The notes under the pieces: model-generated
What the model saw: only the letters and a program-made list of their open reading frames with translations
What the model was told of the DNA's origin: nothing
Database searches by the model: none
Shown here: positions 1,626-27,566 of the stretch, piece after piece
Numbering within the stretch: the first letter of the stretch is position 1
Layout: each line of letters starts with the position of its first letter
DNA from: Acidimicrobiales bacterium
Lineage (GTDB): Bacteria; Actinomycetota; Acidimicrobiia; Acidimicrobiales; RAAP-2
Length of the DNA: 34,240 bases
Direction: 5' to 3'
NCBI GenBank assembly: GCA_050743525.1
Contig: JBOGFV010000022.1
Coordinates: 1 to 34,240 of the forward strand
Translations under genes and position numbers: made by a program

Positions 1626-3974
1626 CTAACTGAAGAGGCCGTCGCCCATCGCCTCGGCCACCTCGGCCTCGTCGATGCCGAGCAGCTCGGGGTACACCTC
1701 GAAGTTGTGTTCACCCGGGTATGCGGCGGCTTGCCGGTACGGCTCAAGCGTCATCGCGCTCCAGATGGCGGGATAGCGGTCGTGTGGCCGGATCCCGAAC
1801 GTCGGGTGATCGAATGTCCGCCACATGGCTCGGTCGACCAGCTGGGGGTCCACCATGAGGTCACCGGTGGTCTGGATCTTGCCGGCGGGTACGCCGGCAG
1901 CCTGGAGACGAGCGGCTCCTTCGTCGGCGTCGACCGTGGCCACCCACCGGCCGACCAGTCGATCGACGGCCTCGGGGTGCTCGATGCGGCCCTCAACCAT
2001 CGCCAGCTGCGGGTCGCCAGCCGCGCCGATGACGCCCGCGAGGCGCTGCCAGTCGCCGTCGTCCCGGCACGACACGGCCAGCCACTCGCCGTCGGCGGCC
2101 CGGTAGCACTCGTTCGGGGCCAGCTGTTCGAATGGATCCCGGTTGCCTTCGGGATGGGCCTCCCGTCCGTTGTTGAGGTAGTCGACCAGGGCGGGACCAA
2201 TCAGATACCCGCCCGTCTCCATCTGGGAGATGTCGACGTGCTGACCCTCACCGGTGGCCTGACGTCCCTCGAGCGCTGCCAGTACTGCGAACGCAGCCGA
2301 CAGCCCGGCCGCGATGTCGTTGAGCGAGAAGCCTGGCCCGAGGTCGCCCCGGCCGGGAGGGTTGGAGAGGTAGGTGAGGCCGCACATCGCGTGGATGGTG
2401 GGGGCAAAGGTGACCAGGCTCGCCCACGGCCCCTCGTGGCCGCAGCCCGACATGGTCACGTAGACGATGGCCGGGTTCCAGGCCTGTACCTCCTTATAGG
2501 AGAGGCCCCAGCGGTCGAGCACCCCGGCCGAGAAGTTCTCGATGAGGACGTCGCTCTGCTCAACGAGCTTGCGCATCACCTCGTTGGCCTGCTCGTGCTT
2601 CATGTTGAGGGTGACCACCCGCTTGGAGCGGTTCCACGCGTAGAAGTAGGGGTGAGCGGGGTCGTTCACCGTGCGGGCCCGCTCGGTCGTCTGGACCTTC
2701 ACGATGTCGGCCCCGAGATCCCCGAGGGTCCGGGTGCACATCGGGCCGGCCAGCACATGGCTCAAGTCGAGGACCCGAAGACCGCTCAGCGGCTTGTCCA
2801 GCTCGGCCGGCACTTCCTCGGGCCCCGGGGCCGGCCGCCCCCACGACTCGAGGAGCGCTTCGAAGTCAGCCAACTCCCCGGGCGGACGGGGTGCTGGGGC
2901 GGGCGTCCCCAGGAACCGGGCGATGGGGCCGGGGATCGAGACGTCCGGACCCGCCCAGTCGACTGGGCGGAAGAACCTGCGGTACTCGTGCTGTGGGTTG
3001 GTGGCCACCTGAGCCACGGTCTGGACCTCCGCGAAGGCGATGTGTCGTTCTTGGGCCGAGTGGAACAGCTCGCCGGCGTCCTTGGTCTTGGCGAACTCTC
3101 CGATCGTGTCCATGACCCTGCCGAGGTTCCCGATCAACTCCTCCGGAGGAAGTGTGGCCAGCTCGATCGCCGGCTCGAACTGCTCCTCCAACATCCAGGT
3201 CATGAGACCGACCGCGTTGGGCGTGGGCGTGATCATCTCCCAGCCGGTCTTGGCCGGCACCACTTTGTAGGCGCCGATCCAGTGCAACGAGCCCTGCCGC
3301 AACGCGACCTTCGGATAGGGCAGGTGGTCGTCGAACCAGTACTGGAACAGGAGCTGCTCGACCGTGGAGCAGACCGACTCGTGGAGCGAGAGGTCCACGT
3401 GCTGGCCCACCCCGGTGACCCCGGCCGCCCGGACCGCCGCCAAGCCGCTGATCGCGGCGAGGAGACCTCCGAAGTTGAAGGCCTGTCGGCCCCACGGGTT
3501 GATCGGCTGGTCGGGAAGCCCTGACACCGACAGAACTCCGCCCATGGCTGCCGCCACGAGGTCGCTCGTCTGCCAGCCAGCCCGGGGACCGGTCCGGCCG
3601 AACGGGGTGAGCGAGACTTGAGCGAGGCGGCGGTTGGTCGGCGCCAGGTCGGGGTGGTCGAGGCCCATGTCCGCGAGCGCGCCAGGTGCCTGCGTCTCGA
3701 CGATGAGGTCGACCCGTTCGGCCAGCGCGCGGTATCCGGTCCGACCGGCGTCGGTGGTGAGGTCGAGGTTGATTCGGGCCTTCCCGCCGTCGTACCACCA
3801 ATCGAGCAGGCCGCCCTGGGCCACCACCTCGACGTCGCGCATGGCCGGTCCTGGCGTCGTCGGGCAGATCTGGACGACGGATGCGCCGGACTCGGCGAGC
3901 AGCTTGGTCGCAAAGCGACCGCTGTCGTCGGTGACGTCCAGAACTCGGAGACCCTCCAATGGGCCCTGCATCAT
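1626..3974 (-). CDS. Duplicated (tandem two-domain) family III CoA-transferase, CaiB/BaiF type
   Basis: 782-aa ORF. The N-half begins MMQGPLEGLRVLDVTDDSGRFATKLLAESGASVVQI. The C-half restarts with LSGLRVLDLSHVLAGPMCTRTLGDLGADIVKV. Both halves carry a GQHVD(L/I)S segment. The C-half has the LNDIAAGLSAAFAVLAAL block expected around the catalytic Asp. Confidence 0.85.
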   Translation of the reverse strand: MMQGPLEGLRVLDVTDDSGRFATKLLAESGASVVQICPTTPGPAMRDVEVVAQGGLLDWWYDGGKARINLDLTTDAGRTGYRALAERVDLIVETQAPGALADMGLDHPDLAPTNRRLAQVSLTPFGRTGPRAGWQTSDLVAAAMGGVLSVSGLPDQPINPWGRQAFNFGGLLAAISGLAAVRAAGVTGVGQHVDLSLHESVCSTVEQLLFQYWFDDHLPYPKVALRQGSLHWIGAYKVVPAKTGWEMITPTPNAVGLMTWMLEEQFEPAIELATLPPEELIGNLGRVMDTIGEFAKTKDAGELFHSAQERHIAFAEVQTVAQVATNPQHEYRRFFRPVDWAGPDVSIPGPIARFLGTPAPAPRPPGELADFEALLESWGRPAPGPEEVPAELDKPLSGLRVLDLSHVLAGPMCTRTLGDLGADIVKVQTTERARTVNDPAHPYFYAWNRSKRVVTLNMKHEQANEVMRKLVEQSDVLIENFSAGVLDRWGLSYKEVQAWNPAIVYVTMSGCGHEGPWASLVTFAPTIHAMCGLTYLSNPPGRGDLGPGFSLNDIAAGLSAAFAVLAALEGRQATGEGQHVDISQMETGGYLIGPALVDYLNNGREAHPEGNRDPFEQLAPNECYRAADGEWLAVSCRDDGDWQRLAGVIGAAGDPQLAMVEGRIEHPEAVDRLVGRWVATVDADEGAARLQAAGVPAGKIQTTGDLMVDPQLVDRAMWRTFDHPTFGIRPHDRYPAIWSAMTLEPYRQAAAYPGEHNFEVYPELLGIDEAEVAEAMGDGLFS

Positions 3975-4329: not shown

Positions 4330-5610
4330 TCAGCCGCTGTCGCCGACGCTCGACTGGGAGAACTCGTCGGCCAGGAGCGACTCGCCTCGGAAGATGGGCG
4401 AGCGGCGGACCTGGCGCTCGATCGACGTCGCAGTCAGCGTGTAGCCAAGGAACAGCAGCAGGGAGACCGTCTGGATGGCCACGCCCGGCCACAGCGTGCT
4501 CGAGTGCGAGAGGACAAAGTCGTTGAGGGCGTGAAGGACCGCGGCCAGCGCGATGCCGCCGATGATGAGCTCGATCCGGCGGCGGGCGTAGTTGACCCCC
4601 ATCCCGATGAAAAAGGCTGACATGCCGGCCCAAATGGCGTGCTGGAACCCGTCGACGAACACCCGCTCGGCGAAGGCGAGCAGGTCGACGATCACCAGAC
4701 CCGGGTTGTGGTTGATCTGGAGCACCGAGGCGGCGGTGTAGCCCGAGGCCTCGCGGACGCCGAAGGTCAATCCCGAGATGGTGCCGAGGAACATCCACAT
4801 GCGGACGTCCCACCGGCTGCTCCGGGCCTTGCGGATCACGAGGGCGATCACAAGGACCGGCAGCGCCTTGGTGATCTCCTCGTTGAAGCCGACCCCGAGT
4901 GCGTCACCGAAGTGTTTCAGGGACAGGTGGTTGTTGATGTTGATCGTCACCACCTGCATCCACGCCAGGACCGCCCCGATGATCAGGATCGCCGCCAGCA
5001 CCTCCTTCTTCCCGATCCGACCGGGCCGGATCAGCAGGTAGAAGGCGATCGCCCACAGCGGGGCCACGTACAGGCTGTAAGCCCATCCCGGCGTCGTCGC
5101 GTTGGTGGTGTTGGAGTACAGCTGGATGAAGATGAGCGGCAAGAGCGCGTACGGGATCACCAAGATCCGCCAGCCTGTCCGCCATCCCCGGTTGGTGAGC
5201 CAGCTCCGCAGCGGCACCAGGATGTGGAGCGCAGAGGCGAACTCGCGCATCGCGTCCGGGTGTGCCGGTGCGGCTCCGACCCCTGCGCCCACCACCGGCA
5301 TCACCGCGTCGGCGGCGGGGGGGTGGGCGAGCTCGATCCGCAGCGCCGGCCCGTCGGGAGTGGCCAGGTGGATCTCCGTCGGGGCGGTGATGACCTGGCG
5401 ATCGACCGGGGTGCCGCCGACGAAGGTTCGGCCCTTGCTCACTTCGGTCAGGACCCAGCCCTCTGGGCCGTAGATGAGTTGCGCATGCTCCCTCGAGACC
5501 GACGGGTCGTCCACCACGACGGCGCTCTCGGCCGATCGACCGATGGTGACCATGCCCGGCGGCGCGAACTCGTGCACGCTCCCGGCCACGACGACTCGAA
5601 TGTTGCTCAT
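4330..5610 (-). CDS. FHA domain fused to a PrsW-family intramembrane metalloprotease
   Basis: The track ORF is 4330..5847. I prefer the ATG at 5610 (MSNIRVVVAG), which is preceded by a G-run usable as a ribosome-binding site. FHA signature: TIGRSAESAVVVDDPSVSREHAQLIYGPEGWVLTEVSKGRTFVGG. About 8 TM helices follow, carrying PrsW motifs: FNEEITKALP (EExxK), VDGFQHAIWAG and AAVLHALNDF (HxxxN/D). Confidence 0.8.
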   Translation of the reverse strand: MSNIRVVVAGSVHEFAPPGMVTIGRSAESAVVVDDPSVSREHAQLIYGPEGWVLTEVSKGRTFVGGTPVDRQVITAPTEIHLATPDGPALRIELAHPPAADAVMPVVGAGVGAAPAHPDAMREFASALHILVPLRSWLTNRGWRTGWRILVIPYALLPLIFIQLYSNTTNATTPGWAYSLYVAPLWAIAFYLLIRPGRIGKKEVLAAILIIGAVLAWMQVVTININNHLSLKHFGDALGVGFNEEITKALPVLVIALVIRKARSSRWDVRMWMFLGTISGLTFGVREASGYTAASVLQINHNPGLVIVDLLAFAERVFVDGFQHAIWAGMSAFFIGMGVNYARRRIELIIGGIALAAVLHALNDFVLSHSSTLWPGVAIQTVSLLLFLGYTLTATSIERQVRRSPIFRGESLLADEFSQSSVGDSG

Positions 5611-5773
5611 TACCCCCCCGGCAGCACAGATTCCGACGCGATCGACGGCGGCGAATCCTCGCATCAGATCGTCGGACCCGCCACCGGCCCGGGACGGGTA
5701 GTGCGCGCGGGGGTAACATCCGCGTCCCCACGGACGCTCGGGCCGGCCACGGCCCCGGGCCACAAGGAGGACC

Positions 5774-6883
5774 GTGCCCGATCCTGTCTGGGACCCATCG
5801 GGGAAGACCGCCGACGCGCTCAAATCCATCGTGTCGGACTTCGGCACGAGGGCGCTGTCGACGCCGTCGATCCTGGAGAACGTCCTTCACGACCTGCTCC
5901 CGGACTCGCCCCGCCAGGTAAGCCTGATCGTCGCGGCGGGCGGCTCGTCGGTCGCCGCCTCACTCCAGGAGCAGGTCGGCAACGGGATGGACCCGGAAAC
6001 CGCCGTCCGCCTGGCGGCCGCCCAGCTGGCCGAGCAGACCCCATTTGACGCGGCGGGCTGCCGCTGGGTGGTGGTCGAGTTCGCTCGAGCCCTCGGTCAC
6101 CAAGTCGCCGACAGTGCCGAGGTGCCGATCGCACCCACACCGGCAGTGGAGACCCCGGGACCGGCAGCGCCGGTTATGCCGGCCAGCCCCGTCAACCAAC
6201 CGAGCGCGGACAAGGCCGAGACGGTGCTCCCCGGGGCTCCTGGTGGGGACGCGACCCCGGTCCCTGCCACTCCGGTCGTGTCGGGCGGGGTGGCGGTACC
6301 GCGGAGGCGGCGCCGCACTCCGATGGTGCTCGTCGCGCTCTTGATCGTGCTCGGTGCCCTGGTCGGAGTAGCGGCCGGCACCCACTTCGGCCCCTTCAAG
6401 CCCTCTCCTTCGTCGGCGCCGCTAAGGAAGTTGCTCCCCGATGATGTCGCCGCGTGCACGACCAATGTCGGGCACTTCAAGTTCACCGGGATGACGGCGA
6501 TCATCGGTTGCAACGTGAACGCGATCGGCGGCCTCGTGTTCTCGTACCAGTTCGACAACCAGGCCGACTTCCAAACCAGCCTGGCCTCATTCAACAAGGC
6601 GGAAGGGTTCGCCCCCGGAAGGGCGAGCGGGAACTGCCCACCGAACCAAAGCGATGGCAATGGCGTGACCACCTGGCACAGCCATCTCTTCCCCCCCGTC
6701 TCCGGCCAGAAGCTGGAGTGCTACACGGTCTTCTCCAACCACAATGCCAATGACGCGCGCGCCACCTATGTCTGGGAAGTGCCGAGCGAGTTCGCGTTCT
6801 TCCAGGCGGTCACCGGTCGTGGCTACACCATGAACCAAATCAACAATTGGTGGGTCAACCACGCCGGGCCGTTCCACAAGTGA
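5774..6883 (+). CDS. Single-pass membrane protein: cytoplasmic helical N-domain, Pro/Ala-rich linker, RRRRR-TM anchor and Cys-containing extracytoplasmic domain (sensor-like, unknown family)
   Basis: GTG start at 5774, 3 nt after an AAGGAGG site. The TM segment is RRRRRTPMVLVALLIVLGALVGVAAG. The C-terminal domain has 4 Cys (CTTNVGHF..IIGCNVN..GNCPPNQ..LECYTV) and ends NNWWVNHAGPFHK. Confidence 0.75.
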   Translation: MPDPVWDPSGKTADALKSIVSDFGTRALSTPSILENVLHDLLPDSPRQVSLIVAAGGSSVAASLQEQVGNGMDPETAVRLAAAQLAEQTPFDAAGCRWVVVEFARALGHQVADSAEVPIAPTPAVETPGPAAPVMPASPVNQPSADKAETVLPGAPGGDATPVPATPVVSGGVAVPRRRRRTPMVLVALLIVLGALVGVAAGTHFGPFKPSPSSAPLRKLLPDDVAACTTNVGHFKFTGMTAIIGCNVNAIGGLVFSYQFDNQADFQTSLASFNKAEGFAPGRASGNCPPNQSDGNGVTTWHSHLFPPVSGQKLECYTVFSNHNANDARATYVWEVPSEFAFFQAVTGRGYTMNQINNWWVNHAGPFHK

Positions 6884-6893
6884 GCGCCCGCCC

Positions 6894-7610
6894 GTGACCG
6901 CGGTTTCGGAGCCCGTCATGCCAGGAGGCGGCGTCGCCCGCCGCCCGCTGCACTTCATCATCATGGCGGACTGCTCCGGCTCGATGGCTGGCGACCGGAT
7001 GCAGGCGCTCAACTACGCGATCGCCGACATGCTCCCGCAACTGGCCGACTGGGAGCGTGACCAGCTGGTCGCCCAGGTGATGGTGCGGGTCCTCGGATTC
7101 GCGACCGCCCCGGTGTGGCACGTCCCGGATCCGGTTCCCGTGGCCGACCTGCGCTGGAAGGCGCTGCACGCCGTCGCGGGTGGGTACACCAACATGGGGC
7201 CAGCATTCCGCGAGGTCGCGGCAGCGATCGGCCCGGACCGGCTGGAGAGCCGGGCGCTGAGGCCGGCGATCCTCCTCGTCACCGACGGTCGTCCGACCGA
7301 CTTGGGGAACGAGTTCGCCGATGGCCTCGCCGCGCTCACTTCCTTCCCGGCCGGCCAGGCCGCGCTCCGGCTGGCCATCGCGATCGGCCACGACGCCAAG
7401 TCCGAGTTCCTGGACCAATTCATCGGCGACCCGACGGTGCCGGTGATCGTGGCTGGCAACACCGAGGAGATCGCCGAGCGGCTGGTCGCCGCGTCGATCG
7501 CGGTCTCCCGGCTCTCCGAGTCGGGCGCCGACCAGGGGGCGCTCGTGAGCCAGCTGCTGGGCACCGGGTCGGGGCGCCCCGAGGACTCCGAGGACCAGAG
7601 CATCCTCTGA
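6894..7610 (+). CDS. von Willebrand factor A (vWA) domain protein, TerY-like
   Basis: Intact MIDAS start HFIIMADCSGSMAGDRM (DxSxS), a later LLVTDGRPTD block, and length 238 aa. It starts 10 nt after the previous stop. An alternative ATG lies at 6918. Confidence 0.85.
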   Translation: MTAVSEPVMPGGGVARRPLHFIIMADCSGSMAGDRMQALNYAIADMLPQLADWERDQLVAQVMVRVLGFATAPVWHVPDPVPVADLRWKALHAVAGGYTNMGPAFREVAAAIGPDRLESRALRPAILLVTDGRPTDLGNEFADGLAALTSFPAGQAALRLAIAIGHDAKSEFLDQFIGDPTVPVIVAGNTEEIAERLVAASIAVSRLSESGADQGALVSQLLGTGSGRPEDSEDQSIL

Positions 7611-7613
7611 GCG

Positions 7614-8471
7614 ATGACAAACCCGGCTGAAGCGTCGACCGGCCCCGCAGGGTGGGACGTCATGACCGCGTCCACACGCGGCGCCGCCCATGAGGCCACC
7701 GACCGTCCCAACCAGGACGCTCAGGGGTGGCGGGTGCTCGACCCGGCCCGCCGGCTGGTCATCGGGGCCGTGGCCGACGGCCACGGGCACTCCCGTCACT
7801 TCCGGTCCGAACAGGGCGCTCGCCTGGCCGTCGAGCAAGGGTGTGACGCCGCCGCCGCCGTTGTGGGCACCTTCGATGGGCTAGAGGCCGACGACCAGGT
7901 CGCCGGCGCGGTCCGGGCCGAACTCGTGGACCGGGTGGTCGACCGGTGGTCTCGTGCCGTCGCTGAGGACCACGACCGCAGGCCCTTCAACCCCGAGGAG
8001 GAGGCGGTCCGGGCGATGTACGACGACGAGGTCGCCATCGCCTATGGGAGCACCCTGCTCCTGCTCGTGCTCCTGCCGCGATGGGTGGTGGTGGCCCAGA
8101 TCGGCGACGGCGACGTCGTGGCGCTGCACGCCGATGGCTCGGTCGCGGTGCCGGTCCCCGTCGACCCGTCCCTCGACGGGCACTACACGACCAGCCTGTG
8201 TCAGCCCGGGGCGGCGGACTCGTTCCGCGTCGCGGTGCTCGACCGATCCGAGACCCCCGTCCTCGGCATGCTCGCCGCGACCGACGGGTTCGGCAACGCC
8301 CAGGCGGCCGAGCCCTGGCAGGACGCGGTGGGCACCGACCTCTCCGAGATGCTGCGGTCCAAGGGGACCGGCTGGGTGCGGGACCGGCTCGGGTCGTGGA
8401 CCGAGCAGTGCGCGTCGAGCGACGGGAGTGGCGACGACACCACGGTGCTGCTGGCGGTGGCCGACCGGTGA
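7614..8471 (+). CDS. PP2C-family Ser/Thr protein phosphatase
   Basis: Motifs: NQDAQGW, VIGAVADGHGHSRH, VVAQIGDGDVV, LAATDGFGN, SGDDTTVLLAV. It starts 3 nt after the vWA stop. Confidence 0.85.
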   Translation: MTNPAEASTGPAGWDVMTASTRGAAHEATDRPNQDAQGWRVLDPARRLVIGAVADGHGHSRHFRSEQGARLAVEQGCDAAAAVVGTFDGLEADDQVAGAVRAELVDRVVDRWSRAVAEDHDRRPFNPEEEAVRAMYDDEVAIAYGSTLLLLVLLPRWVVVAQIGDGDVVALHADGSVAVPVPVDPSLDGHYTTSLCQPGAADSFRVAVLDRSETPVLGMLAATDGFGNAQAAEPWQDAVGTDLSEMLRSKGTGWVRDRLGSWTEQCASSDGSGDDTTVLLAVADR

Positions 8472-9781
8472 TCCGGTTGCCCGAGCAGGGCGACATCCTG
8501 TCGATGTCCCGGGTCGGCTCGGCCTTGACCGTGGGGCGCCGGCTCCAGCAGGGCGGACAGGGCGTCGTCCACGAGTCCTTCGTCGGCGACGGCGTCTTCG
8601 CAATGAAGTGGCTCCGGGTGTCGGACCGCACCGCGGCGCTCCGTGCCTCGATCGAGGCGCTCGTCGACCGTCCCCGCCCCAATCCCGCCTTTGTCTGGCC
8701 CATCGACATCGTGACGAGCGCCGAGCTGGAGGGGTTCGGCTACGTCATGCGGCTGCTGGAGCCCCGCTACGTGTCGTTCGCCCGGATGCTCCAGGACCAG
8801 CCGACCTTTCGCAGCCTGACGACGGTGGCCCGCAAGTTGGTCGATTCGTTCGCCGCCCTCCACTCCTCGGGTCTCTGCTACCGGGACATCAGCTTCAACA
8901 ATCTCTACGTGGACCCGATCCGCTCGGAGGTCGCCGTCATCGACAACGACAACGTCGGCCTCGACGGGGGCGACGTCTTCGTCAAGGGCACCAACCAATT
9001 CATGGCACCCGAGGTGGTGCGGGACGAGGCCTTGCCCTCGACCGTGACCGATCTGTGGTCGCTCGCCGTCTTCCTCTTCATCCTGTTCGTGCGGGGCCAT
9101 CCCCTGGAAGGCCTGAGGGCGGTCTCCAGCTACTCGTGGGCCCAGACCGACCACGCCTCCGAGCACGAGCTGCTGCTTCGCAACTTCGGCTTCGGGCCTG
9201 TCTTCGTGTTCGACCCCGACGACGACTCGAACCGACCGTCACCCGAGAGCCCGATGCTCATCTATTGGCCCATCTACCCGCAGTTCTTCCGGGATCTCAT
9301 GACCCGGTCGTTCACCGTCGGGCTCACCGACGCCTCGCTGTCGGGCCGTCCGACCGGGAGCGTGTGGCGCCGGGCACTGCTTCGACTCTCCGACATGCAC
9401 GCCACCTGCAGGTGCAACGCCGCGATCTTCTTCGACCCCGACGAGCCGGGCCGGCCGTGCTGGCGGTGCGGCAACGTCCCGCCGCCTCAGCCCATCCTCC
9501 GGTTGCCCGGACGGAGCCTGGTGCTCTCGGAGGGGAGCACGGTGAGCTCCGACCACCTGCGCCGCGACCGCGCGTACGACCAAGCCGTGGCGGTGGTCGA
9601 AGCCCACCCGAGCGAGCCCGGCGCAGTGGTCCTCCGGAACCTCGGTCCTTCCACGTGGTCTGCCCGCCCGGTTGCCGAGTCCGAGCGTGCGGTCGCCCCG
9701 AGCCAGAGGCTGGGGGTGCGGCCGATGGGAATCGATTTCGGGTCGGTCGCGGGCGAGATCGCGCTCAGCGAGCTCGCCTGA
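8468..9781 (+). CDS. Ser/Thr protein kinase (triad type) with C-terminal Cys4 zinc-ribbon-like motif and beta-rich tail
   Basis: The track ORF starts at 8081 inside the PP2C gene. I prefer the in-frame GTG at 8468, which overlaps the PP2C stop (GTGA). Kinase motifs: LQQGGQGVVHES (Gly loop), VFAMKWL (Lys), LCYRDISFNNLYV (catalytic loop), AVIDNDNVG (DFG equivalent), GTNQFMAPEV (APE). The tail carries CRCN...CWRCGN. Confidence 0.8.
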   Translation: MIRLPEQGDILSMSRVGSALTVGRRLQQGGQGVVHESFVGDGVFAMKWLRVSDRTAALRASIEALVDRPRPNPAFVWPIDIVTSAELEGFGYVMRLLEPRYVSFARMLQDQPTFRSLTTVARKLVDSFAALHSSGLCYRDISFNNLYVDPIRSEVAVIDNDNVGLDGGDVFVKGTNQFMAPEVVRDEALPSTVTDLWSLAVFLFILFVRGHPLEGLRAVSSYSWAQTDHASEHELLLRNFGFGPVFVFDPDDDSNRPSPESPMLIYWPIYPQFFRDLMTRSFTVGLTDASLSGRPTGSVWRRALLRLSDMHATCRCNAAIFFDPDEPGRPCWRCGNVPPPQPILRLPGRSLVLSEGSTVSSDHLRRDRAYDQAVAVVEAHPSEPGAVVLRNLGPSTWSARPVAESERAVAPSQRLGVRPMGIDFGSVAGEIALSELA

Positions 9782-11011: not shown

Positions 11012-12121
11012 ATGCCGAGGACCTACGAGCTGCGGGTCGACCTCGGCGCCACCCTGGCCGAGCAGCCCCTCAGCGGACACAACCGCTGGCATCCCGGCAT
11101 CGAGGCGTTGGTCCACATCGCCTCCGGGGACCGCGTCGTGCTCCAGATGCGCGACGCGCTCGACCTGCAATTCGGTCGGCACGCCAGCTTGGCCTCGGTG
11201 GCCACGGTCGACCTGAACCTCGTCCACCCGCTCACCGGGCCGGTGTACGTCGACGAGGCCGAGCCGGGCGACCTGCTCGAGGTCCGGATCCTCGACCTCG
11301 AGCCCGACACCTACGGCTTCAGCGCTCAGATCCCCGGGTTCGGGTTCCTGCGGGACCACTTCCCGGATCCCTTCCTCGTGCAGTGGACGATCACGGACGG
11401 GTACGCGACATCGCCACAGATCCCCGGCCTCGCCATCCCCGGCGCGCCGTTCCCAGGGATCGTGGGCCTGGCCCCGAGCCATGAGCTCCTCGGGGCCATC
11501 GTCCGCCGGGAGCGGGCCGACGCCGAGCGCGGCGGCATGGTCGTCGAGCCCGATCCGGCGGGCGCCGTGCCGAGCGATCAGCGGATCGCGACCGAGGCGC
11601 TCCGCACCATTGCGCCGCACGAGGTCGGAGGGAACATCGACATCAAGCAGCTCACCGCCGGCTCGACGCTGTTTCTGCCGGTGTCCGTGCCGGGGGCCCT
11701 GCTCTCGGCCGGCGACGGCCACTTCGCGCAGGGCGACGGCGAGGTGTGCGGGACTGCCATCGAGATGAGCGGCACCCTCCATCTCGAGCTGCACCTCCAC
11801 AAGGGGAGAGCGATCCAGCGGGGGATCACGACGCTCCAGTTCTCCTCCGACCGCCCGACCGGGCCGCCTGCGGGCCCGTACTTCGCCACCACGGGGCTGT
11901 CGGTGAGCGCGGCGGGAGAGAGCCGCGCCGAGGACCTCGGGCTGTCGGCCGAGAACGCGCTGCTGGCCATGATCGAGCACCTGGGGGCCGAGTACGGCTA
12001 CTCGGCCCAGCAGGCCTACGCGATCTGCAGCGTCGCCGTCGACCTCAAGGTCAGCCAGGTCGTCGACGTCCCCAACTTCATCGTCTCGGCCGTCCTGCCG
12101 CTCTCGATCTTCGTCGGCTAG
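11012..12121 (+). CDS. Acetamidase/formamidase family amidohydrolase
   Basis: 369 aa. Diagnostic stretches: HNRWHPGIEALVHIASGD, LTGPVYVDEAEPGDLLEVRILDLEP, GFSAQIPGFGFLRDHFPDPF, GGNIDIKQLTAGSTLFLPV, AGDGHFAQGDGEVCGTAIE. These are typical of FmdA/AmdA enzymes. Confidence 0.85.
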   Translation: MPRTYELRVDLGATLAEQPLSGHNRWHPGIEALVHIASGDRVVLQMRDALDLQFGRHASLASVATVDLNLVHPLTGPVYVDEAEPGDLLEVRILDLEPDTYGFSAQIPGFGFLRDHFPDPFLVQWTITDGYATSPQIPGLAIPGAPFPGIVGLAPSHELLGAIVRRERADAERGGMVVEPDPAGAVPSDQRIATEALRTIAPHEVGGNIDIKQLTAGSTLFLPVSVPGALLSAGDGHFAQGDGEVCGTAIEMSGTLHLELHLHKGRAIQRGITTLQFSSDRPTGPPAGPYFATTGLSVSAAGESRAEDLGLSAENALLAMIEHLGAEYGYSAQQAYAICSVAVDLKVSQVVDVPNFIVSAVLPLSIFVG

Positions 12122-13263
12122 TCGAGGAACTCCTCGCTCCCGAGCTGGAGGCAGGTGAGGAAGACCCGCTCGGCCATCAGCGCGACCAGTTCTCGGCCGC
12201 GCTCATTGGCAGGGTCCATCGAGCCGCCCGCGACGACTGGGTACACGGCCATGCCGAGCACCGCCCGTCGGTATTGGGACCACGCCTCCTCGAAGGGATA
12301 GCCGTCAATCCCCGCAGGCGACCCACCCTCGAGCGACGCGGCCACCCGGTAATACCAGCCCTGGACCAGCGCCTGCTCCTGGGCCCGGCGGGTGTCGACG
12401 GAGAGCGACTGGCTGAGGAGGTAGGCGACGTCCGAGATCGCCGGACCCTTGTAGCTGATCTGCCAGTCGAGGACGGCGACCCGGTCGGGTCCGGCGTCGT
12501 CGAACAGCAGGTTGTCGATCCGGTAGTCGCCGTGGCAGATGGTGGTGGGGGCCATCTTGAGGAGCGACACGGTGAGGTCCCCCCAGACCTCCTTGATGCG
12601 GGCCCCGAGGTCGACCGCTCCGTCGGGGAGCGCCTCGCCGAACAGGGCGACGAAGTTGTCCCAGGCCTGCCGGAATTGCTCGCCGGCCGACAGCACGAGC
12701 GGCTCGTCCATCCTCGGCATCCAGTCGAGCGCGTCGAGGCCGGCGCCGTCCCACCAGGCGGCGTGCAGGCTGGCCAGGGCGCCCAGGGCCTGGGCGGCCC
12801 GGTCGGGCCCGGCCCCCGCCACCTGGCTGATGCTGGTCCACCCGCCCAGGTCCTCGAGCAGGAGGCCGTACTCGTCGGCATCGGGGTCGATGTGGTTCCA
12901 GTAGCAGCGCGGGGTGCGCATGGAGAGCTTCTCGCCGATCTCCCGGTAGAAGCGACCCTCCCGCTCATAGAAGTGGAAGTAGTTCCCGATGGCTCGGTTC
13001 TCGGGGAACTCGGAGGGGATCTTGAGCACCACGTTCCCCGGAGCGCCAGGGGCCTCGCCCGCATAGCGGAGGCTGAGCCGGGCCAGCTGGCCGACGATCC
13101 CGACCCCGACCCCGATCTGCTCGTGCTCGATCTCGGCGACGCTCGTGTCGCCACCGATCACCCCTCCCGATCGGAGTGCTTCGGTGAGGAACTCGACCGT
13201 CGTGTCCTCGGTCCGGCTCGGGATGGCGGTCATCCGGCCCCCCTGCGCTGGTGGCCGATCCAA
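12118..13263 (-). CDS. Phosphotransferase enzyme family protein (APH / ecdysteroid-kinase-like fold)
   Basis: Catalytic-loop region TTICHGDYRIDNLLFDD and VAVLDWQISYKGPAISDVAYLL. Length 381 aa. The start could instead be the internal ATG at 13233 (MTAIPSR). Confidence 0.8.
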   Translation of the reverse strand: MDRPPAQGGRMTAIPSRTEDTTVEFLTEALRSGGVIGGDTSVAEIEHEQIGVGVGIVGQLARLSLRYAGEAPGAPGNVVLKIPSEFPENRAIGNYFHFYEREGRFYREIGEKLSMRTPRCYWNHIDPDADEYGLLLEDLGGWTSISQVAGAGPDRAAQALGALASLHAAWWDGAGLDALDWMPRMDEPLVLSAGEQFRQAWDNFVALFGEALPDGAVDLGARIKEVWGDLTVSLLKMAPTTICHGDYRIDNLLFDDAGPDRVAVLDWQISYKGPAISDVAYLLSQSLSVDTRRAQEQALVQGWYYRVAASLEGGSPAGIDGYPFEEAWSQYRRAVLGMAVYPVVAGGSMDPANERGRELVALMAERVFLTCLQLGSEEFLD

Positions 13264-16384: not shown

Positions 16385-17119
16385 TTGGTCGTCAAGCGCT
16401 ACCTCGCGCCCGACCGGTTCACGATCTTCGACCGGTCGCGGCTTGGTTACGAGGCTCGAGTCAACCGCTGGCTGCTCCGGCACCCGCCGCCGGTCCGATT
16501 CCCCCGACTCGTGGGCGTCGACCGGGCCGCCGGCACCCTCAGCTTCGAGGCAATCGACGGAGATCCGGTCGGCCTGAAGTTCCCCACCGAGCTCGACTCG
16601 GCCACCCTCGACAAGATGATCAATTTGGCCTGGGCGATCCCGGCGCGGGTCACGGGCTGCCGGTGGCTGCGCCGGTTTTCGTTGGGCGCCAGGCTCCGGT
16701 CGGCCGTGGCCGTCGGCCACCTGCGCGAGGGCGATGCCGGCGCGGTCTTGCGCGCGGCCCCGATTGGTCCGCCCAGCTTGCGGTTCGCCCACGGCGACCT
16801 CACCGCTCGCAACGTGCTCCGGAGCTCGATGGGCGAGCTGGTCGTCATCGACTGGGAGTGGGCCGGGCTATACCCGGTGGGCTATGAGGCGGCCTTCCTG
16901 TGGCTCTCGGTCCTCGACGTTCCAGGGGCCCGGGCGCGAGTCGAGGCGTCCGTCCCTGAAGGGGCCGCCGCGTGGTTCTGGCGCTCGGCGCTGTGCGTCC
17001 AGCTGGTCCACCTCGCCCTGTACGCACCGCGACCGGAGCTGGCCGGACTGCTCGAACGCCACCTGGCGACGCGCGACGAGCTGGTCGAGCGGATCACCTC
17101 GTCTCCGATGGCCGGCTGA
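16385..17119 (+). CDS. Aminoglycoside-phosphotransferase-like kinase fold protein; N-terminus uncertain
   Basis: Catalytic region LRFAHGDLTARNVLRSSMGELVVIDWEWAGLYPVGYEAAF. The track start is a TTG. The in-frame upstream sequence (..SAHSTVTWSNGGS-LVVKRY) still looks coding but has no ATG/GTG/TTG. Confidence 0.65.
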   Translation: MVVKRYLAPDRFTIFDRSRLGYEARVNRWLLRHPPPVRFPRLVGVDRAAGTLSFEAIDGDPVGLKFPTELDSATLDKMINLAWAIPARVTGCRWLRRFSLGARLRSAVAVGHLREGDAGAVLRAAPIGPPSLRFAHGDLTARNVLRSSMGELVVIDWEWAGLYPVGYEAAFLWLSVLDVPGARARVEASVPEGAAAWFWRSALCVQLVHLALYAPRPELAGLLERHLATRDELVERITSSPMAG

Positions 17120-21006: not shown

Positions 21007-22275
21007 TCAGCCCTCGACGTAGAGCTCGCCGTTGCCGCCTTCGGCGATCGTGAGGCGGCGCAGTCCGGTCGCGGCCGGGCCCTGGACCACGGCGCCGTTG
21101 TCGGGATTGAACTCGGAGCCGTGGCATGGACAGGCGATGATCCGCTGCGAGGGGAGGTAGCCGACGGTGCAACCGGCGTGGGGGCACAGCGCGTCGTAGG
21201 CGACGAAGCGTCCACGTTCGAGCTGGATCACCAGCGACGGGAACCGGGTGGTGGGGTCGTTGAAGGCAGCCGAGCCACCGACCGGCACGTCCTTGGCCAA
21301 CCCAATTGCGTGTCCGGGCGGGGTGGCGGTCGTGGGCCCGGTGGCGGACCCGGTGGTTGTCCGGGTCTTGGTGGGTTGAAGGGAGACGGGCAGGGGCGCG
21401 GCTTTGGCCCCGCCGACCATCCGGCCGATCCCGGCGGCGGCACCCGCCGCGGCAAGCCCGACGGCGCCGACCGCGGCGGCGGCCGTCCCCGTGACAACCA
21501 GCTGGCGGCGGGTGATCTGGCCCGGTGCCTCCGGCTCGGCGGCGCGCCTGGGCGGGTGGTTGAGGAACGGACATGGAGCTGGCTCGCAGACCGCCCCTCG
21601 GCGGGCCCGGCACCGCCCGTCGTCGAACTGTCCGCAGACTCGCTGGATGGTGCCGAACGGGACGGTCACCGGAACCCCGGAGCCCTGGCCGTGGACGGCC
21701 CTCCTCCGGGTGGCCAGCATCGCATCGACGGAGAGCACTCCGCCGGCGCCAGCGATGACGAGCGGCGTCCACGCGAACACGAACACGATGTCGGCGCCCG
21801 TGTAGTAGGGCGCGGCGTTGTAGCTGACCGTGAGGAAGAGGAGCAGGGAGAGCAGGGCTCCGAACCCCGCCGCCACCCGCGTCCAGAGCCCGGCCAGCAC
21901 CCCGAGACCGATCGCGAGCTCCCCGAAGGCGATGAGGAGGCCGATCGGCGTCGAGAGACGGAGCAGGTGGCCGAGAGCGAAATTCAGGGGGCTGATCCGG
22001 TCGGCCGCCACCATCTGGGCGTAGATCCCGGCCGGGTCGGCACGGGTGAAGAAGTTGGGGTTGGCCAGCTTCTGCAGCCCGGCGACGCAGAACGTCACGC
22101 CGAGAAACGCTCGGAGGGGGAGCAGCGCCCAGCCGGCGAGCATCGGAAAGCGCGCCGGTGGCCTGGTCAGCCGATGGCGGAGGCCGGGCACGACTTTCGA
22201 CGCTACCGGCCCTAGGGAGACGGGTGACTGAGGCCCGAGCGGACCGCGCTCATCCCTTGACGAAAAGCTGACCAC
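21007..22275 (-). CDS. Fusion protein: DoxX/DoxD-like membrane domain, Cys-rich linker, Tat-like RR-TM segment and Rieske [2Fe-2S] domain
   Basis: N-terminal part: LLPLRAFLGVTFCVAGLQKLANPNFF plus 4 TM helices. Linker: CGQFDDGRCRARRGAVCEPAPCPF. Then ITRRQLVVTGTAAAAVGAVGLAAAGAAAG. Rieske motifs: CPHAGCTVGY and CPCHGSEFNP. The start is uncertain: 22275 overlaps the upstream gene by 26 nt, and an alternative ATG lies at 22143. Confidence 0.8.
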   Translation of the reverse strand: MVSFSSRDERGPLGPQSPVSLGPVASKVVPGLRHRLTRPPARFPMLAGWALLPLRAFLGVTFCVAGLQKLANPNFFTRADPAGIYAQMVAADRISPLNFALGHLLRLSTPIGLLIAFGELAIGLGVLAGLWTRVAAGFGALLSLLLFLTVSYNAAPYYTGADIVFVFAWTPLVIAGAGGVLSVDAMLATRRRAVHGQGSGVPVTVPFGTIQRVCGQFDDGRCRARRGAVCEPAPCPFLNHPPRRAAEPEAPGQITRRQLVVTGTAAAAVGAVGLAAAGAAAGIGRMVGGAKAAPLPVSLQPTKTRTTTGSATGPTTATPPGHAIGLAKDVPVGGSAAFNDPTTRFPSLVIQLERGRFVAYDALCPHAGCTVGYLPSQRIIACPCHGSEFNPDNGAVVQGPAATGLRRLTIAEGGNGELYVEG

Positions 22276-22699
22276 CCGAGACTGTGATGGTCAGCTTCTT
22301 CAGCCCGTGGGGCGCCGGCCCGCGCACCCGACGGCCGGTGGCCGGGTTGAACTGGGATCCATGGCAGGGGCACTGGATCAGGTGCTCCTGCGGCACGTAG
22401 CCGACCGTGCAGCCCTCGTGCGGGCACACCGCGTCGTAGGCGACGAACTTGCCCCTGTGCAGCTGGATGACGAGCGAAGGCAGATGGGTCTTGGGGTCCG
22501 CGAAAAGGGCGGAGGATCCGACCGGTACCGCCCTGGCCGGGCCGATCCTTTTTCCAGCGACCTTGGTGGTCGCTTCCGCGGCCCCGGTGCCCACCGTGGC
22601 GGCACCGGCGGCCCCAATCGCGGCGGCCCCGGCGATCACGACCTGGCGCCGGGAGAGCGTCTCGCGGGCGGGCGGCGGCAAAGGATTGGAGTGGTCCAC
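22250..22699 (-). CDS. Tat-signal Rieske [2Fe-2S] protein
   Basis: GTG start at 22699. Twin-arginine signal LSRRQVVIAGAAAIGAAGAA. Rieske boxes CPHEGCTVGY and CPCHGSQFNP. By eye it is about 60% identical to the C-terminal domain of the downstream fusion protein. Confidence 0.85.
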   Translation of the reverse strand: MDHSNPLPPPARETLSRRQVVIAGAAAIGAAGAATVGTGAAEATTKVAGKRIGPARAVPVGSSALFADPKTHLPSLVIQLHRGKFVAYDAVCPHEGCTVGYVPQEHLIQCPCHGSQFNPATGRRVRGPAPHGLKKLTITVSGGQLFVKG

Positions 22700-22717
22700 G
22701 ACGGTCCTTTGTGGCGT

Positions 22718-22749
22718 TCGGGGCGCTGAGGCCCCATCGGGGCGCTGAG
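22718..22749. repeat. 13-nt perfect direct repeat (two copies, 19-nt period) just upstream of the Rieske operon
   Basis: TCGGGGCGCTGAG occurs at 22718..22730 and again at 22737..22749, 19-50 nt upstream of the GTG at 22699 (minus-strand gene). Confidence 0.6.
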
Positions 22750-22820
22750 CTCCCGGGGGCGTCGTTCGACCCTATCGGAGGGTCGCGGTCGAGTGGCCGC
22801 GCCCCTCCGGGAGCCGCAGC

Positions 22821-23069
22821 TCAATCCGGTTTGACCGGAGGCAAGAGCGCGGCGATCAGCACCCGGTCGCCGGGTCCAAGGCCGGCGGCGGCGAACCGAC
22901 CCGCCACCTCGGCCGTGCGCTCCAGCAACTCGCTACCGCTCGCCCAGCTCCCGTCGGGGTCACGGACGACCTCGGAAGATGGGTTCGCCGCCCAACGGGC
23001 CCGCCACGCCGCGGGGAGCATCCCGGCACCGATCAGGTCGACCGCGCCAGGGTCGGTTCCGGGGGCCAA
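22821..23069 (-). pseudogene. N-terminal stub (82 codons) of an AMP-dependent synthetase/acyl-CoA ligase
   Basis: LPAAWRARWAANPSSEVVRDPDGSWASGSELLERTAEVAGRFAAAGLGPGDRVLIAA matches the stereotyped N-terminus of adenylate-forming enzymes. It stops 8 codons later, and no continuation appears in any frame before 22700. Confidence 0.45.
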
Positions 23070-23126
23070 ATGGGCCGACCAGGAGAGGAGAGTGTCGGTC
23101 CCGACATCCGGAGTCGCCGGGCGCGG

Positions 23127-23924
23127 TCAGCCTCGGTCGGGCTCGCCGTTGAGGGCGTTCTGGCGGCCCCGGCGCCAGTACGGCTTGAAGCTCACCCGGT
23201 CGGCGTCCATGCCCCGAGCGATCAACACGTCGCGGAGCCGGGTGACCATTGCGTGCTCGCCCCCGACATAGGCGTGGCCGGTCCCGGTAGGGAGGGCCGT
23301 GTCGGCCAGGGCGGCCTCGAGGGCCTGCGGGTTGCCAAGCGCGCCCTGACGCACCACCCACCGCGGCCCCTCGACGGTCGCGCCGATCTCGCTTGGCTGT
23401 TCGTGGCCGTCACCGTCGATCTCGATCGCCAGGACGACCGTTTGGTTCGGGTTGACCGCCTCGGCCATGTTGAGCGCCGCCGGTGCGAACGAGTCGTCGC
23501 CGAAGAAGAGGTGCCACTCGGCGTCGGGGTCCAAGGTGATTTTCCCCCGCGGGCCGATCGCTTCGATCAGGTCGCCGGTCCGGGCGACGGTGGCCCAGCG
23601 CCGACCGGGTCCGTCGCCGTGCAGGGCGACGTCGAGATCGACCAGGCATCGCTCGTGGTCGTAGTGCCGGATCGTGTAGCGCCGACGCCGAGTCCTGTCC
23701 CCATCGAGGTCCAGCGAGAGCATGAGGTCCTGGCCCGGCAGCGGGTCGAGGGCCGCGAGGTCGTCCCCGCCGAGCCGGACCCGGCGACACGACGGCGTGA
23801 GGGCCCGGGCGTCGACGACCTCGAGGCTGAGGGCGATGACCCCAAGGCGGTCGGCGAGCGCCTCATTGTCGCGACGGCCGGGGCGGGCCTCGCCCGCGGC
23901 GCGCTGGTCAGTGGAGGGGTCCAT
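23127..23924 (-). CDS. Siderophore-interacting protein (SIP/ViuB-type FAD-binding ferric reductase)
   Basis: ATG at 23924 within the longer track ORF. Matching stretches: RRRYTIRHYD (FAD-binding RxYT/S motif), WHLFFGDDSFAPAALNMAE, YVGGEHAMVTRLRDVLIARGMDADRVSFKPYWRRG. Confidence 0.8.
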   Translation of the reverse strand: MDPSTDQRAAGEARPGRRDNEALADRLGVIALSLEVVDARALTPSCRRVRLGGDDLAALDPLPGQDLMLSLDLDGDRTRRRRYTIRHYDHERCLVDLDVALHGDGPGRRWATVARTGDLIEAIGPRGKITLDPDAEWHLFFGDDSFAPAALNMAEAVNPNQTVVLAIEIDGDGHEQPSEIGATVEGPRWVVRQGALGNPQALEAALADTALPTGTGHAYVGGEHAMVTRLRDVLIARGMDADRVSFKPYWRRGRQNALNGEPDRG

Positions 23925-23959
23925 CCCGACATTCTCGCGCCCGACCGGCCGGGCGCGGC

Positions 23960-24352
23960 CTACGAGCTGGTCGACCCCGAGCGAGCCAACAGGTCCCTGA
24001 TCTCGGTCAGGATCTGGACCTCCTCGGACACCTCGGCCTCGTCTGTCTGCGGGCCCCGCCGGCGGGCCAGCACGGCGTTCATCGGGGCGACCACGAGGAA
24101 GTAGACGGCGGCCGCGATGGCGAGGAAGGCGATGATGACGTTGACGAGGTCGCCGTAGTGGAAGGTGCTGTGGTGCACCGTGAAGGTCAGGTTGTTGAAG
24201 TTCGGCTTGCCGGCGATGGCGGCGATCAGCGGGGTGACGATGTCCCGGACCAGCGCCTGGACCACTGCATTGAACGCCACCCCGATGACCACCGCGATCG
24301 CCAGGTCGACCACGGTGCCCCGCAGGATGAACTGCCGGAATCCCTTGAGCAT
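23960..24352 (-). CDS. mscL: Large-conductance mechanosensitive channel MscL
   Basis: ATG at 24352. MLKGFRQFILRGTVVDLAIAVVIGVAFNAVVQALVRDIVTPLI is the canonical MscL TM1. Length 130 aa with a second TM and a charged C-terminal helix. Confidence 0.9.
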   Translation of the reverse strand: MLKGFRQFILRGTVVDLAIAVVIGVAFNAVVQALVRDIVTPLIAAIAGKPNFNNLTFTVHHSTFHYGDLVNVIIAFLAIAAAVYFLVVAPMNAVLARRRGPQTDEAEVSEEVQILTEIRDLLARSGSTSS

Positions 24353-24408
24353 GGTGTGCCCCCTCTCCCTCGGCCACCTCCGGGTGGCCTTCTGGAGCTT
24401 GGCACACC
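24353..24408. promoter_or_regulatory. Nested inverted repeats in the mscL / copZ divergent intergenic region
   Basis: Outer arms: GGTGTGCC (24353..24360) and GGCACACC (24401..24408). Inner arms: GGCCACC (24372..24378) and GGTGGCC (24383..24389), with a 4-nt spacer. The outer arm abuts the mscL start codon. Confidence 0.3.
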
Positions 24409-24474
24409 CCCTGAGCTGGGATCGGGTTCGCGGCGACGGCCCGATCGAGTGAGCGTGGGAATTACGCTGGGCCA

Positions 24475-24726
24475 ATGCCGATCGACGCCGACGGGACTGG
24501 CACCATGGTCGAGCTCGAGGTGGGTGGCATGCACTGTCAGTCCTGTGTGGCCCTGATCGAGGAGACGCTGGCTTCAGAACCCTGGGTGAAGTCGGTCCGC
24601 GTCGACCTCGATGCCGGTCGGGCCCTCGTCGTGTTCGACGGCAGCGCCATCACGGTCGACGAATTGTGCGCCGCGGTGGTGGGGGCGGGTTACCCCGCCC
24701 GCTCTCTCTCTTCTCCGGGTTCCTAA
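24475..24726 (+). CDS. copZ: Copper chaperone CopZ (HMA domain)
   Basis: MVELEVGGMHCQSCVALIEETL carries the MxCxxC metal-binding motif in a ferredoxin-like domain of about 70 aa. An alternative start lies at 24505. Confidence 0.85.
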   Translation: MPIDADGTGTMVELEVGGMHCQSCVALIEETLASEPWVKSVRVDLDAGRALVVFDGSAITVDELCAAVVGAGYPARSLSSPGS

Positions 24727-24775
24727 TGCTCACCGCCCCCTTGGACCGGGCGGTCGCGATCGAAGAGGGCGTCCG

Positions 24776-27394: not shown

Positions 27395-27566
27395 GCGGTG
27401 CTCGGACACCCGAACGGATCCGCACGTCCCAATCCGTCAGCCCGACCCGCCAGACCGAGAGCCCGAGGCTGGGCTGCCGGTTCCAGCGAGGCCCTCGGGA
27501 GAAACGTCGGGCCCGAACCGTCCGGGCCTGCCTCACTGACCAGGCGCTGTTGGCTACCCTAAGGCC

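Follow-up and report, generated by a model that had tools for sequence, protein, structure and literature searches.

At positions 4330-5610 of contig JBOGFV010000022.1 (assembly GCA_050743525.1, an Acidimicrobiales bacterium of the RAAP-2 lineage), whose analysed stretch of 34,240 nucleotides is here called the window, a single gene encodes an FHA domain fused to a PrsW-type intramembrane protease. This protein, FHA-PrsW, is probably the membrane output of a five-gene phospho-signalling cassette, coupled to the kinase and the phosphatase encoded by its neighbours. The case is built on the identities of the domains, the intact catalytic and phosphothreonine (pThr)-contacting residues, the topology of the protein, the structure of the adjoining operon and the conservation of the linkage between them. 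On this basis we infer that the kinase would make the FHA ligand, that binding by the FHA domain would gate proteolysis, and that X, a single-pass membrane protein of the same cassette, may be the substrate. The initial annotation of the locus had suggested that the FHA domain could couple cleavage to Ser/Thr-kinase activity, a proposal that now has strong circumstantial support, because a divergent operon encodes a Ser/Thr kinase and a PP2C-family phosphatase about 2 kb from the gene, and the linkage is conserved in related genomes. The fusion itself is an already catalogued architecture; the conserved cassette context is the new information.

The direct fusion that the initial annotation had read from the sequence lies at exactly the coordinates given above, with both domains in one open reading frame (ORF) and each above its Pfam cut-off. 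The FHA match (PF00498) covers residues 21-75 with an E value of 2.2e-11 and 44.5 bits against a cut-off of 20.7, and the PrsW-protease match (PF13367) covers residues 203-380 with an E value of 7.3e-16 and 58.7 bits against a cut-off of 23.5. Chance explains neither match. Annotation pipelines already label such fusions; a search of NCBIfam with FHA-PrsW returned FHA-containing families only, all sub-threshold. The AlphaFold2 model, built on 86 homologues, has a mean predicted local distance difference test score (pLDDT) of 86.4 and a predicted template modelling score (pTM) of 0.75. It consists of a beta-sandwich (residues 4-94) that retains the expected Arg, Ser and His, a disordered Ala/Pro linker (99-115), eight long helices (142-392) and two short C-terminal helices.

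A start codon downstream of the FHA region would have removed that domain from the protein. The ATG at 5610 is preceded by a G-rich, Shine-Dalgarno-like run, the ORF ends with a stop codon at 4330-4332, and in an alignment the first residue of nearly all full-length homologues is the Met of 5610 (MSNIRV, MSDIRV or MNELQV). A GTG at 5847, which would give a protein of 505 amino acids (aa), was considered as an alternative start and rejected, as homologues start at the 5610 Met and the 79 additional residues are unconserved and overlap the divergent gene that begins at 5774. For these reasons the FHA region lies inside the true gene, and the start codon lies upstream of it.

The membrane core of FHA-PrsW carries all of the polar residues expected of the PrsW family. 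Published active-site motifs of PrsW comprise EExxK, an extra His and HxxxD (PMC4602095). The corresponding positions in the window protein are E244-E245-x-x-K248 (E-E-I-T-K) in transmembrane (TM) helix 4, E287 in TM5, H324 in TM6 and H360-x-x-x-D364 (H-A-L-N-D) in TM7. E244, E245, K248, E287, H324, H360 and D364 are each invariant among the 86 homologues over which residue conservation was scored, and all four conserved polar motifs sit in the outer-leaflet half of their helices. The motifs quoted in the initial annotation were all found in place, both in the protease (FNEEITK, GFQHAIWAG with H324, and HALND) and in the FHA region (IGR with G24 and R25, SREH at S39-H42, and SKGRTFVGG at 58-66). 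Its view that the protease looks active is borne out by the three signature blocks, all intact and invariant, and FHA-PrsW looks, from its sequence, like a catalytically competent intramembrane protease of the PrsW type (glutamic/metallo-type, MEROPS M82). In a PDB sequence search, the whole protein found FHA matches only and no solved PrsW relative, and the top 50 Foldseek matches were likewise FHA domains only.

The orientation of the protein in the membrane can be read from its charge distribution. Predicted cytoplasmic segments hold 19 Lys and Arg residues and predicted outside loops hold 1, which places the FHA domain and the C-terminal tail in the cytoplasm. The active site is directed toward the outer face, as expected of an enzyme that makes a site-1-type cut. 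The cytoplasmic tail is itself conserved, with I397, E398, V401, R402, P405, F407, R408, G409 and S411 invariant or nearly so, and position 404 is Thr in most relatives and Ser in the clade of the window protein. This tail motif could be a phospho-site or a docking motif.

The N-terminal domain resembles actinobacterial FHA domains that bind pThr. The top Foldseek match of this part in the PDB is the FHA-1 domain of Rv1747 (6CCD; E value 3.9e-7, TM-score 0.92 on the target, root-mean-square deviation 1.1 A), followed by OdhI, GarA and FhaA. The residues G24, R25, S39, R40 and H42 show no variation in the 86 homologues and T62 almost none, and R25, S39 and H42 align with the GR and SRxH motifs of both Rv1747 FHA-1 and FHA-2. 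In Rad53, Arg70 and Ser85 are the two residues that bind pThr directly, and they are essential (PMC3138270); R25 and S39 are their equivalents in FHA-PrsW. The initial annotation had allowed that either the pThr-binding residues or the catalytic residues might prove to be missing from a profile alignment; instead, the FHA Arg, Ser and His and the PrsW Glu-Glu, His and His...Asp are invariant. The window protein has every sequence and structural feature of the PrsW family that was examined, and every such feature of the FHA family except a loop Asn, which is taken up below.

Immediately upstream of FHA-PrsW, and divergent from it, four genes encode X, a vWA protein, a PP2C and a Ser/Thr kinase (STK); the coordinates of all features are collected in the table that follows. 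The four genes are tightly packed on the plus strand, with gaps of 10, 3 and -4 bp, the last of these arising where the GTG start of the kinase overlaps the stop of the PP2C as GTGA. The intergenic region presumably holds promoters for both directions.

Features of the FHA-PrsW locus, with positions in the window
Feature	Position	Strand	Extent	Basis or description
FHA-PrsW gene	4330..5610	-	426 aa plus stop	ORF and translation; Pfam FHA and PrsW-protease above gathering scores
FHA domain, predicted cytoplasmic	5320..5610	-	aa 1-97	AlphaFold2 beta-sandwich, pLDDT 90-97
Ala/Pro-rich disordered linker	5260..5319	-	aa 98-117	pLDDT below 50 at 99-115
PrsW membrane core	4432..5259	-	aa 118-393	8 TM helices; Pfam PF13367, AlphaFold2 helices
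Conserved cytoplasmic C-terminal tail	4330..4431	-	aa 394-426	Motif SIERxVRR[T/S]PxFRGES
Divergent intergenic region	5611..5773	.	163 bp	Between FHA-PrsW and the X-vWA-PP2C-STK operon
Gene X, single-pass membrane protein	5774..6883	+	369 aa	AlphaFold2 model, hydropathy
Standalone vWA protein	6894..7610	+	238 aa	MIDAS-like (metal-ion-dependent adhesion site) D-C-S-G-S...T...D pattern
PP2C-family Ser/Thr phosphatase	7614..8471	+	285 aa	Pfam PP2C_2, 99.7 bits
Hanks-type Ser/Thr kinase (STK)	8468..9781	+	437 aa	Pfam Pkinase, 44 bits; PDB kinase matches

Three of the four operon products have recognisable catalytic or binding motifs, and hydropathy analysis finds no TM segment in any of the three. 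In the kinase, the conserved elements are A.KW (with the Lys), YRD, IDNDN, a GT..FMAPE segment that contains the activation-loop Thr, and C.C...CW.C. The latter, a zinc-ribbon-like arrangement spaced as C.C...(15 aa)...CW.C, is conserved after the kinase domain and has no Pfam match. Beyond it lies a further conserved domain, about 120 aa long (within 9350-9781, plus strand), also with no Pfam match, whose pattern is L.LPG...VLS.G...HL.R.R..D...VE.HP..PG..LRN...W....V.P..RLG.RPM.IDFGS; this may be the 'beta-strand-rich domain' of PMC7159879. The phosphatase has the conserved PP2C motifs DGHGH, QIGDGD, TDG.GN and DDTT. The vWA protein scores 24.6 bits with Pfam VWA_2, just under the cut-off of 27, its DxSxS...T...D pattern is conserved, and no other member of the cassette is so well conserved, its identity being 54-87% across the loci that have full-length matches.

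The fourth product, X, is predicted from the AlphaFold2 model and hydropathy to have a helical cytoplasmic N-domain (residues 10-106), a disordered linker, a run of RRRRR and a TM helix at about 185-205. In the model, residues 215-365 form an extracytoplasmic alpha/beta domain with conserved Cys. With its one hydrophobic segment the protein is predicted to be N-in/C-out, the orientation found in site-1 substrates such as RsiW. The linker is variable apart from a conserved RPDQAxT150VLPP, which corresponds to PTQ[VIM]AP in Streptosporangiaceae homologues and to SDTVAP in a distant one. The 28 homologues of X are all hypothetical proteins, and X has no match in Pfam (at default settings or at E<=10), in PADLOC or in a profile search against the PDB. 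Foldseek found nothing significant, the best match being PsbP-like (E value 8e-3, probability 0.72), so that the extracytoplasmic domain is at best weakly PsbP/Mog1-like.

The association of FHA-PrsW with these genes recurs well beyond the window. Linkage was counted in 80 species-level loci from GTDB genomes (numbered here with the prefix L) as the presence of homologues of the window proteins within 8 kb of FHA-PrsW. The PP2C was found in 31 of the 80 loci, the kinase in 23, the vWA protein in 21 and X in 19; since many contigs are short, these figures are minimum values. The loci come nearly all from metagenome-assembled genomes (MAGs) of Acidimicrobiales, Streptosporangiaceae/Trebonia or unclassified Actinomycetota. 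The cassette accompanies FHA-PrsW in at least 20 species-level MAGs of the Acidimicrobiales and Streptosporangiaceae, usually as one co-directional operon. The order X-vWA-PP2C-STK-FHA-PrsW, all in one direction, is seen in L002, L008, L038, L046, L048, L050, L058, L060-L066, L072, L076, L079 and L083. The divergent layout of the window is found in L001, which encodes a 70% identical homologue, and in L005-L007. In L002 and L003, where FHA-PrsW is 55-59% identical to the window protein, the five genes form one co-directional operon.

Clustering of the neighbourhoods gave one class with the full cassette, a decayed one in which the PP2C alone is kept, and several classes of paralogues with unrelated metabolic neighbours. 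Decay is evident in L004 and L037, where the PP2C lies directly upstream of FHA-PrsW together with fragments of the vWA and kinase genes, and X is missing. In L009, L015, L017, L018, L033-L036, L039, L080 and L081, only the PP2C is left directly upstream, and vWA, kinase and X are absent. Linked and unlinked paralogues also coexist, with single MAGs that carry two or more FHA-PrsW genes (for instance L026 and L058, L023 and L060, L022 and L083, L061 and L065). In a neighbour-joining tree, which serves as a rough guide only, every member of the clade that holds the window protein is linked.

Linkage extends to a distant relative. A protein of 36% identity with three tandem FHA domains fused to PrsW (L086, 8001-11453) is encoded directly after a VWA-PP2C-Pkinase trio, and an X homologue of 31% identity adjoins this operon; another relative, of 35% identity, is unlinked. 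The product of a neighbouring gene in L086 joins an FHA domain to a guanylate/adenylate-cyclase domain. Separately, about eight related loci match the PrsW core only and are seemingly FHA-less (for instance L047, L049, L056 and L078).

A mechanism in which these components act together can be sketched. The soluble kinase, possibly under control of the vWA protein, would write pThr on a cytoplasmic site, for which the conserved Thr motif within X's disordered linker is the best candidate and the activation loop of the kinase itself the alternative. The FHA domain would then dock on the mark, and docking would allow the outer-leaflet active site of PrsW to clip the tethered bitopic protein extracytoplasmically, as a site-1 cut. 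The cut would set free, as a signal, either the extracytoplasmic domain of X or, once processed further, the helical domain on its cytoplasmic side, and the PP2C would erase the mark and reset the switch. The parts of this sketch differ in how likely they are. That FHA-PrsW is the membrane output of the cassette is the reading we favour; that X is its substrate is a tentative suggestion; and that the locus encodes an undescribed self-contained switch, in which the kinase phosphorylates the Thr motif of X, the FHA domain captures the pThr, PrsW cuts X on the outside and the PP2C resets the system, is more doubtful still.

Several observations weigh against the favoured reading or parts of it. 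In the window, FHA-PrsW is divergent from the operon and not co-transcribed with it. Roughly half of the related FHA-PrsW loci (classes C-F) are paralogues that lack a nearby kinase, phosphatase or X, and about a dozen loci retain only the PP2C (class B); such unlinked and PP2C-only loci show that the protease can function in the absence of X and of this particular kinase. In Pfam, Foldseek or PDB searches, no regulatory domain that would explain an effect of its cleavage, for instance an anti-sigma domain, is recognisable in X. The searchable literature yielded no experimental study of any FHA-PrsW protein. Finally, the Asn of the canonical S-x-N-G-T loop of FHA domains, which contacts the peptide backbone, is absent family-wide. 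The loop reads S58-K59-G60-R61-T62 in the window protein, with Gly60 at the Asn position, where relatives have Ala, Ser or Gly (family consensus G-R-[A/S/G]-G-T). Because of this absence, pThr binding by the FHA domain is probable but not assured, and recognition of the peptide is perhaps atypical.

One potential role for the FHA domain stems from its ability to dock on phosphorylated kinases, which is common amongst FHA proteins (for instance Rv1747-PknF and Deinococcus DRA0333). FHA-PrsW could serve as a membrane anchor or scaffold for the kinase, autophosphorylated on the Thr of GT..FMAPE, together with the vWA protein and the PP2C, with proteolysis being constitutive or otherwise regulated. 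The conserved activation-loop Thr and the lack of a TM segment in the kinase, the PP2C and the vWA protein fit such a role, which nonetheless leaves unexplained why the protein that serves as anchor is in every case a protease whose catalytic residues are fully conserved and why X travels with the cassette. As a complete account it is unlikely, yet it is compatible with the favoured reading as a first step. A ligand within FHA-PrsW itself was also considered. The linker between the FHA and TM regions is Thr-free in the window protein and varies in length up to about 200 aa among relatives, the RR[T/S]P site of the C-terminal tail is Ser in the clade of the window protein, and FHA domains strongly prefer pThr over phosphoserine; self-binding is not favoured for these reasons.

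Precedents exist for parts of the proposed logic. In Mycobacterium tuberculosis, the ABC transporter Rv1747, which has two FHA domains and shares an operon with the kinase PknF, is regulated in its activity by FHA-pThr binding (PMC3138270). Like FHA-PrsW, Rv1747 is a polytopic membrane machine with an N-terminal cytoplasmic FHA domain, encoded next to a Ser/Thr kinase, and its FHA-1 is the closest structural match. The differences are that the output of Rv1747 is a transporter, that its pThr sites lie in its own inter-FHA linker, whereas the window linker is Thr-free, and that it keeps the canonical Asn. The DRA0331-0334 operon of Deinococcus radiodurans similarly encodes vWA, Ser/Thr kinase, FHA and PP2C proteins together, the FHA protein being a phospho-docking module between kinase and phosphatase (bioRxiv 10.64898/2026.01.23.701218). 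In that case the FHA domain is soluble and stand-alone, whereas in the window it is fused to an intramembrane protease, which would give the pathway a proteolytic output at the membrane.

An RsiW-type pathway, in which FHA-PrsW makes a site-1 cut in an anti-sigma factor encoded elsewhere, any cellular Ser/Thr kinase supplies the ligand and the cassette is only loosely related, has the attraction of following the one characterised member of the family, since Bacillus subtilis PrsW cleaves the anti-sigma factor RsiW (PMC3498285, PMC4602095). B. subtilis PrsW (YpdC) and the window protein share PF13367, the EExxK, TM-His and HxxxD motifs, and an active site predicted to face outward, which suits an extracytoplasmic cut of an N-in/C-out bitopic protein. 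Unlike the window protein, B. subtilis PrsW is not described with an FHA domain or other cytoplasmic reader, and it acts on an anti-sigma factor that is co-regulated with sigma-W. The many FHA-PrsW paralogues with no kinase nearby would fit such a pathway, as would a pair of genes for an extracytoplasmic function (ECF) sigma factor and a zf-HC2/RskA anti-sigma factor in L001 (12573-13990), about 1.2 kb downstream of FHA-PrsW. This pair is not present in L002-L004, L085 or L086, however, and the window genes that were scanned include neither sigma nor anti-sigma genes; X has no zf-HC2/RskA anti-sigma domain (Pfam at E<=10, PDB sequence and fold searches) and the cassette has no sigma gene. Linkage to the kinase, PP2C, vWA and X genes, by contrast, recurs across clades. 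A pathway of this kind thus appears improbable for the window protein. The analogy with RsiW that accompanied the initial annotation consequently holds for the mechanism of cleavage but does not carry over to the substrate, as the window has no conserved sigma/anti-sigma pair near FHA-PrsW and candidate substrate X has no anti-sigma domain.

The missing loop Asn raises the alternative that the FHA domain mediates interactions independently of phosphorylation or acts as an autoinhibitory lid, in the manner of the FHA-like cytoplasmic domains found in the YscD proteins of type III secretion, with the kinase irrelevant to its function. A match of FHA-PrsW to Pfam Yop-YscD_cpl points the same way but is below threshold (28.1 bits against a cut-off of 33.2). 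The Arg and Ser that are essential for pThr contact, the His and the loop Thr are nevertheless invariant or nearly so, the nearest structural matches are genuine pThr-binding FHA domains from actinobacteria, and the conserved linkage to kinase and phosphatase would be left unexplained, all of which makes this alternative quite improbable.

The kinase, PP2C and vWA genes form a unit that has been seen before, reportedly first by Anantharaman et al. in 2012 as the TerY-P triad. The triad has been summarised as a TerY-like vWA protein, a PP2C and a Ser/Thr kinase with a C-terminal zinc ribbon (PMC11090510), and an actinobacterial trio of vWA protein, PP2C and kinase with a zinc ribbon plus a beta-rich domain has also been noted (PMC7159879). 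The window genes resemble both in adjacency and domain content, the kinase having a C-terminal CxC...CxxC motif and then an extra conserved domain. They differ from TerY-P in being linked to FHA-PrsW and X instead of tellurite-resistance, restriction, CoCoNuT or GTPase genes, in their order (vWA-PP2C-STK), in the absence of a PADLOC match for vWA and PP2C, and in the vWA Pfam score just under the cut-off. TerY-P-like modules are reported as stand-alone defence systems and the triads accompany restriction-type systems (PMC11090510), and PrsW domains process polymorphic toxins in other architectures (PMC3482391), but an anti-phage or conflict system in which the triad senses infection and PrsW acts as a membrane-damaging or toxin-processing effector is very hard to credit, given that no PADLOC model matches vWA, PP2C, X or PrsW and the kinase matches only generic kinase-containing models (PD-T4-6, mad6, MkoA), the genes around the cassette are ordinary metabolic ones, its proteins show high conservation (vWA as above) in stable chromosomal synteny, none is fused to a toxin domain, and FHA-fused PrsW proteins were explicitly set apart from toxin-associated versions by Zhang et al. 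(PMC3482391).

FHA-PrsW fusions are widespread in sequence collections. A word-indexed search of 5.8 billion proteins scored 8,000 candidates, of which 1,336 are homologues at E<=1e-5; almost all of the best 120 of these 1,336 have both PF00498 and PF13367. One match, a partial sequence of 333 aa annotated as coming from an Acidimicrobiales MAG, is 100% identical to the window protein. An exhaustive phmmer search of 1.84 billion 50%-identity representatives yielded 1,870 matches at E<=1e-3, of which 335 remain at E<=1e-10 and 55 at E<=1e-30, with full-length FHA plus PrsW matches extending to about 30-36% identity. A tblastn search of a plasmid collection found only a distant Deinococcus PrsW and unrelated FHA matches. 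The architecture is already labelled in public annotation, where one JGI protein name joins an FHA protein with 'RsiW-degrading membrane proteinase PrsW'.

Neither the architecture nor the coupling inference is new, because both were stated by Zhang, de Souza, Anantharaman, Iyer and Aravind in 2012 (Biol Direct 7:18, PMC3482391), who listed fusions of PrsW to PilZ, cNMP-binding, 'phosphopeptide-binding FHA' and Zn-ribbon domains and made the same inference for the FHA fusions as the initial annotation. Their 'signalling peptidases' share with the window protein an FHA domain N-terminal to an 8-TM PrsW core with conserved motifs. Their treatment is one sentence with no neighbourhood, partner or substrate, whereas the window protein is tied to a kinase, phosphatase, vWA and X cassette. 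The literature search found no link of FHA-PrsW to a TerY-P-like triad and X, and none of the papers it covered names both PrsW and TerY; as the original TerY-P paper was outside that search, no priority is claimed.

Several other genes were noted in the remainder of the window. Downstream of FHA-PrsW, a 782-aa protein (1626-3974, minus strand) has two tandem CoA-transferase family III domains (Pfam 496.8 bits, in two stretches). Two genes for APH/EcKL-type small-molecule phosphotransferase-like proteins (12118-13263, minus; 16385-17119, plus) are unrelated to the Hanks-type kinase. The cluster at 21007-28697 is metal- or copper-flavoured. It includes two Rieske proteins, one of them a DoxX-Rieske fusion; an MscL-like ORF (about 23960-24400, minus); a small ORF that is HMA-like (about 24415-24726); an HMA-domain P-type ATPase (24611-27394); and a secreted protein (27567-28697) with weak similarity to copper type II monooxygenases. 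An ORF that resembles a pyridine-nucleotide-disulfide oxidoreductase comes after a stand-alone CHAD-domain protein (31148-31915, plus; 87.7 bits).

The gating of PrsW-type site-1 proteases is unclear even in Bacillus, and the conserved cassette turns a published prediction of one line into a testable model. The locus names a specific kinase, a phosphatase, a vWA partner and a candidate bitopic substrate with a conserved Thr motif. If the proposed capture and cutting of X were true, an intramembrane protease would select its substrate via a phospho-mark that is read on the opposite side of the membrane. If the coupling is false, the gene is one more member of a catalogued architecture. If it is true, Hanks-type Ser/Thr signalling would be tied directly to regulated membrane proteolysis in Actinomycetota, and the poorly understood vWA-PP2C-kinase (TerY-P-like) triads would gain a concrete output.

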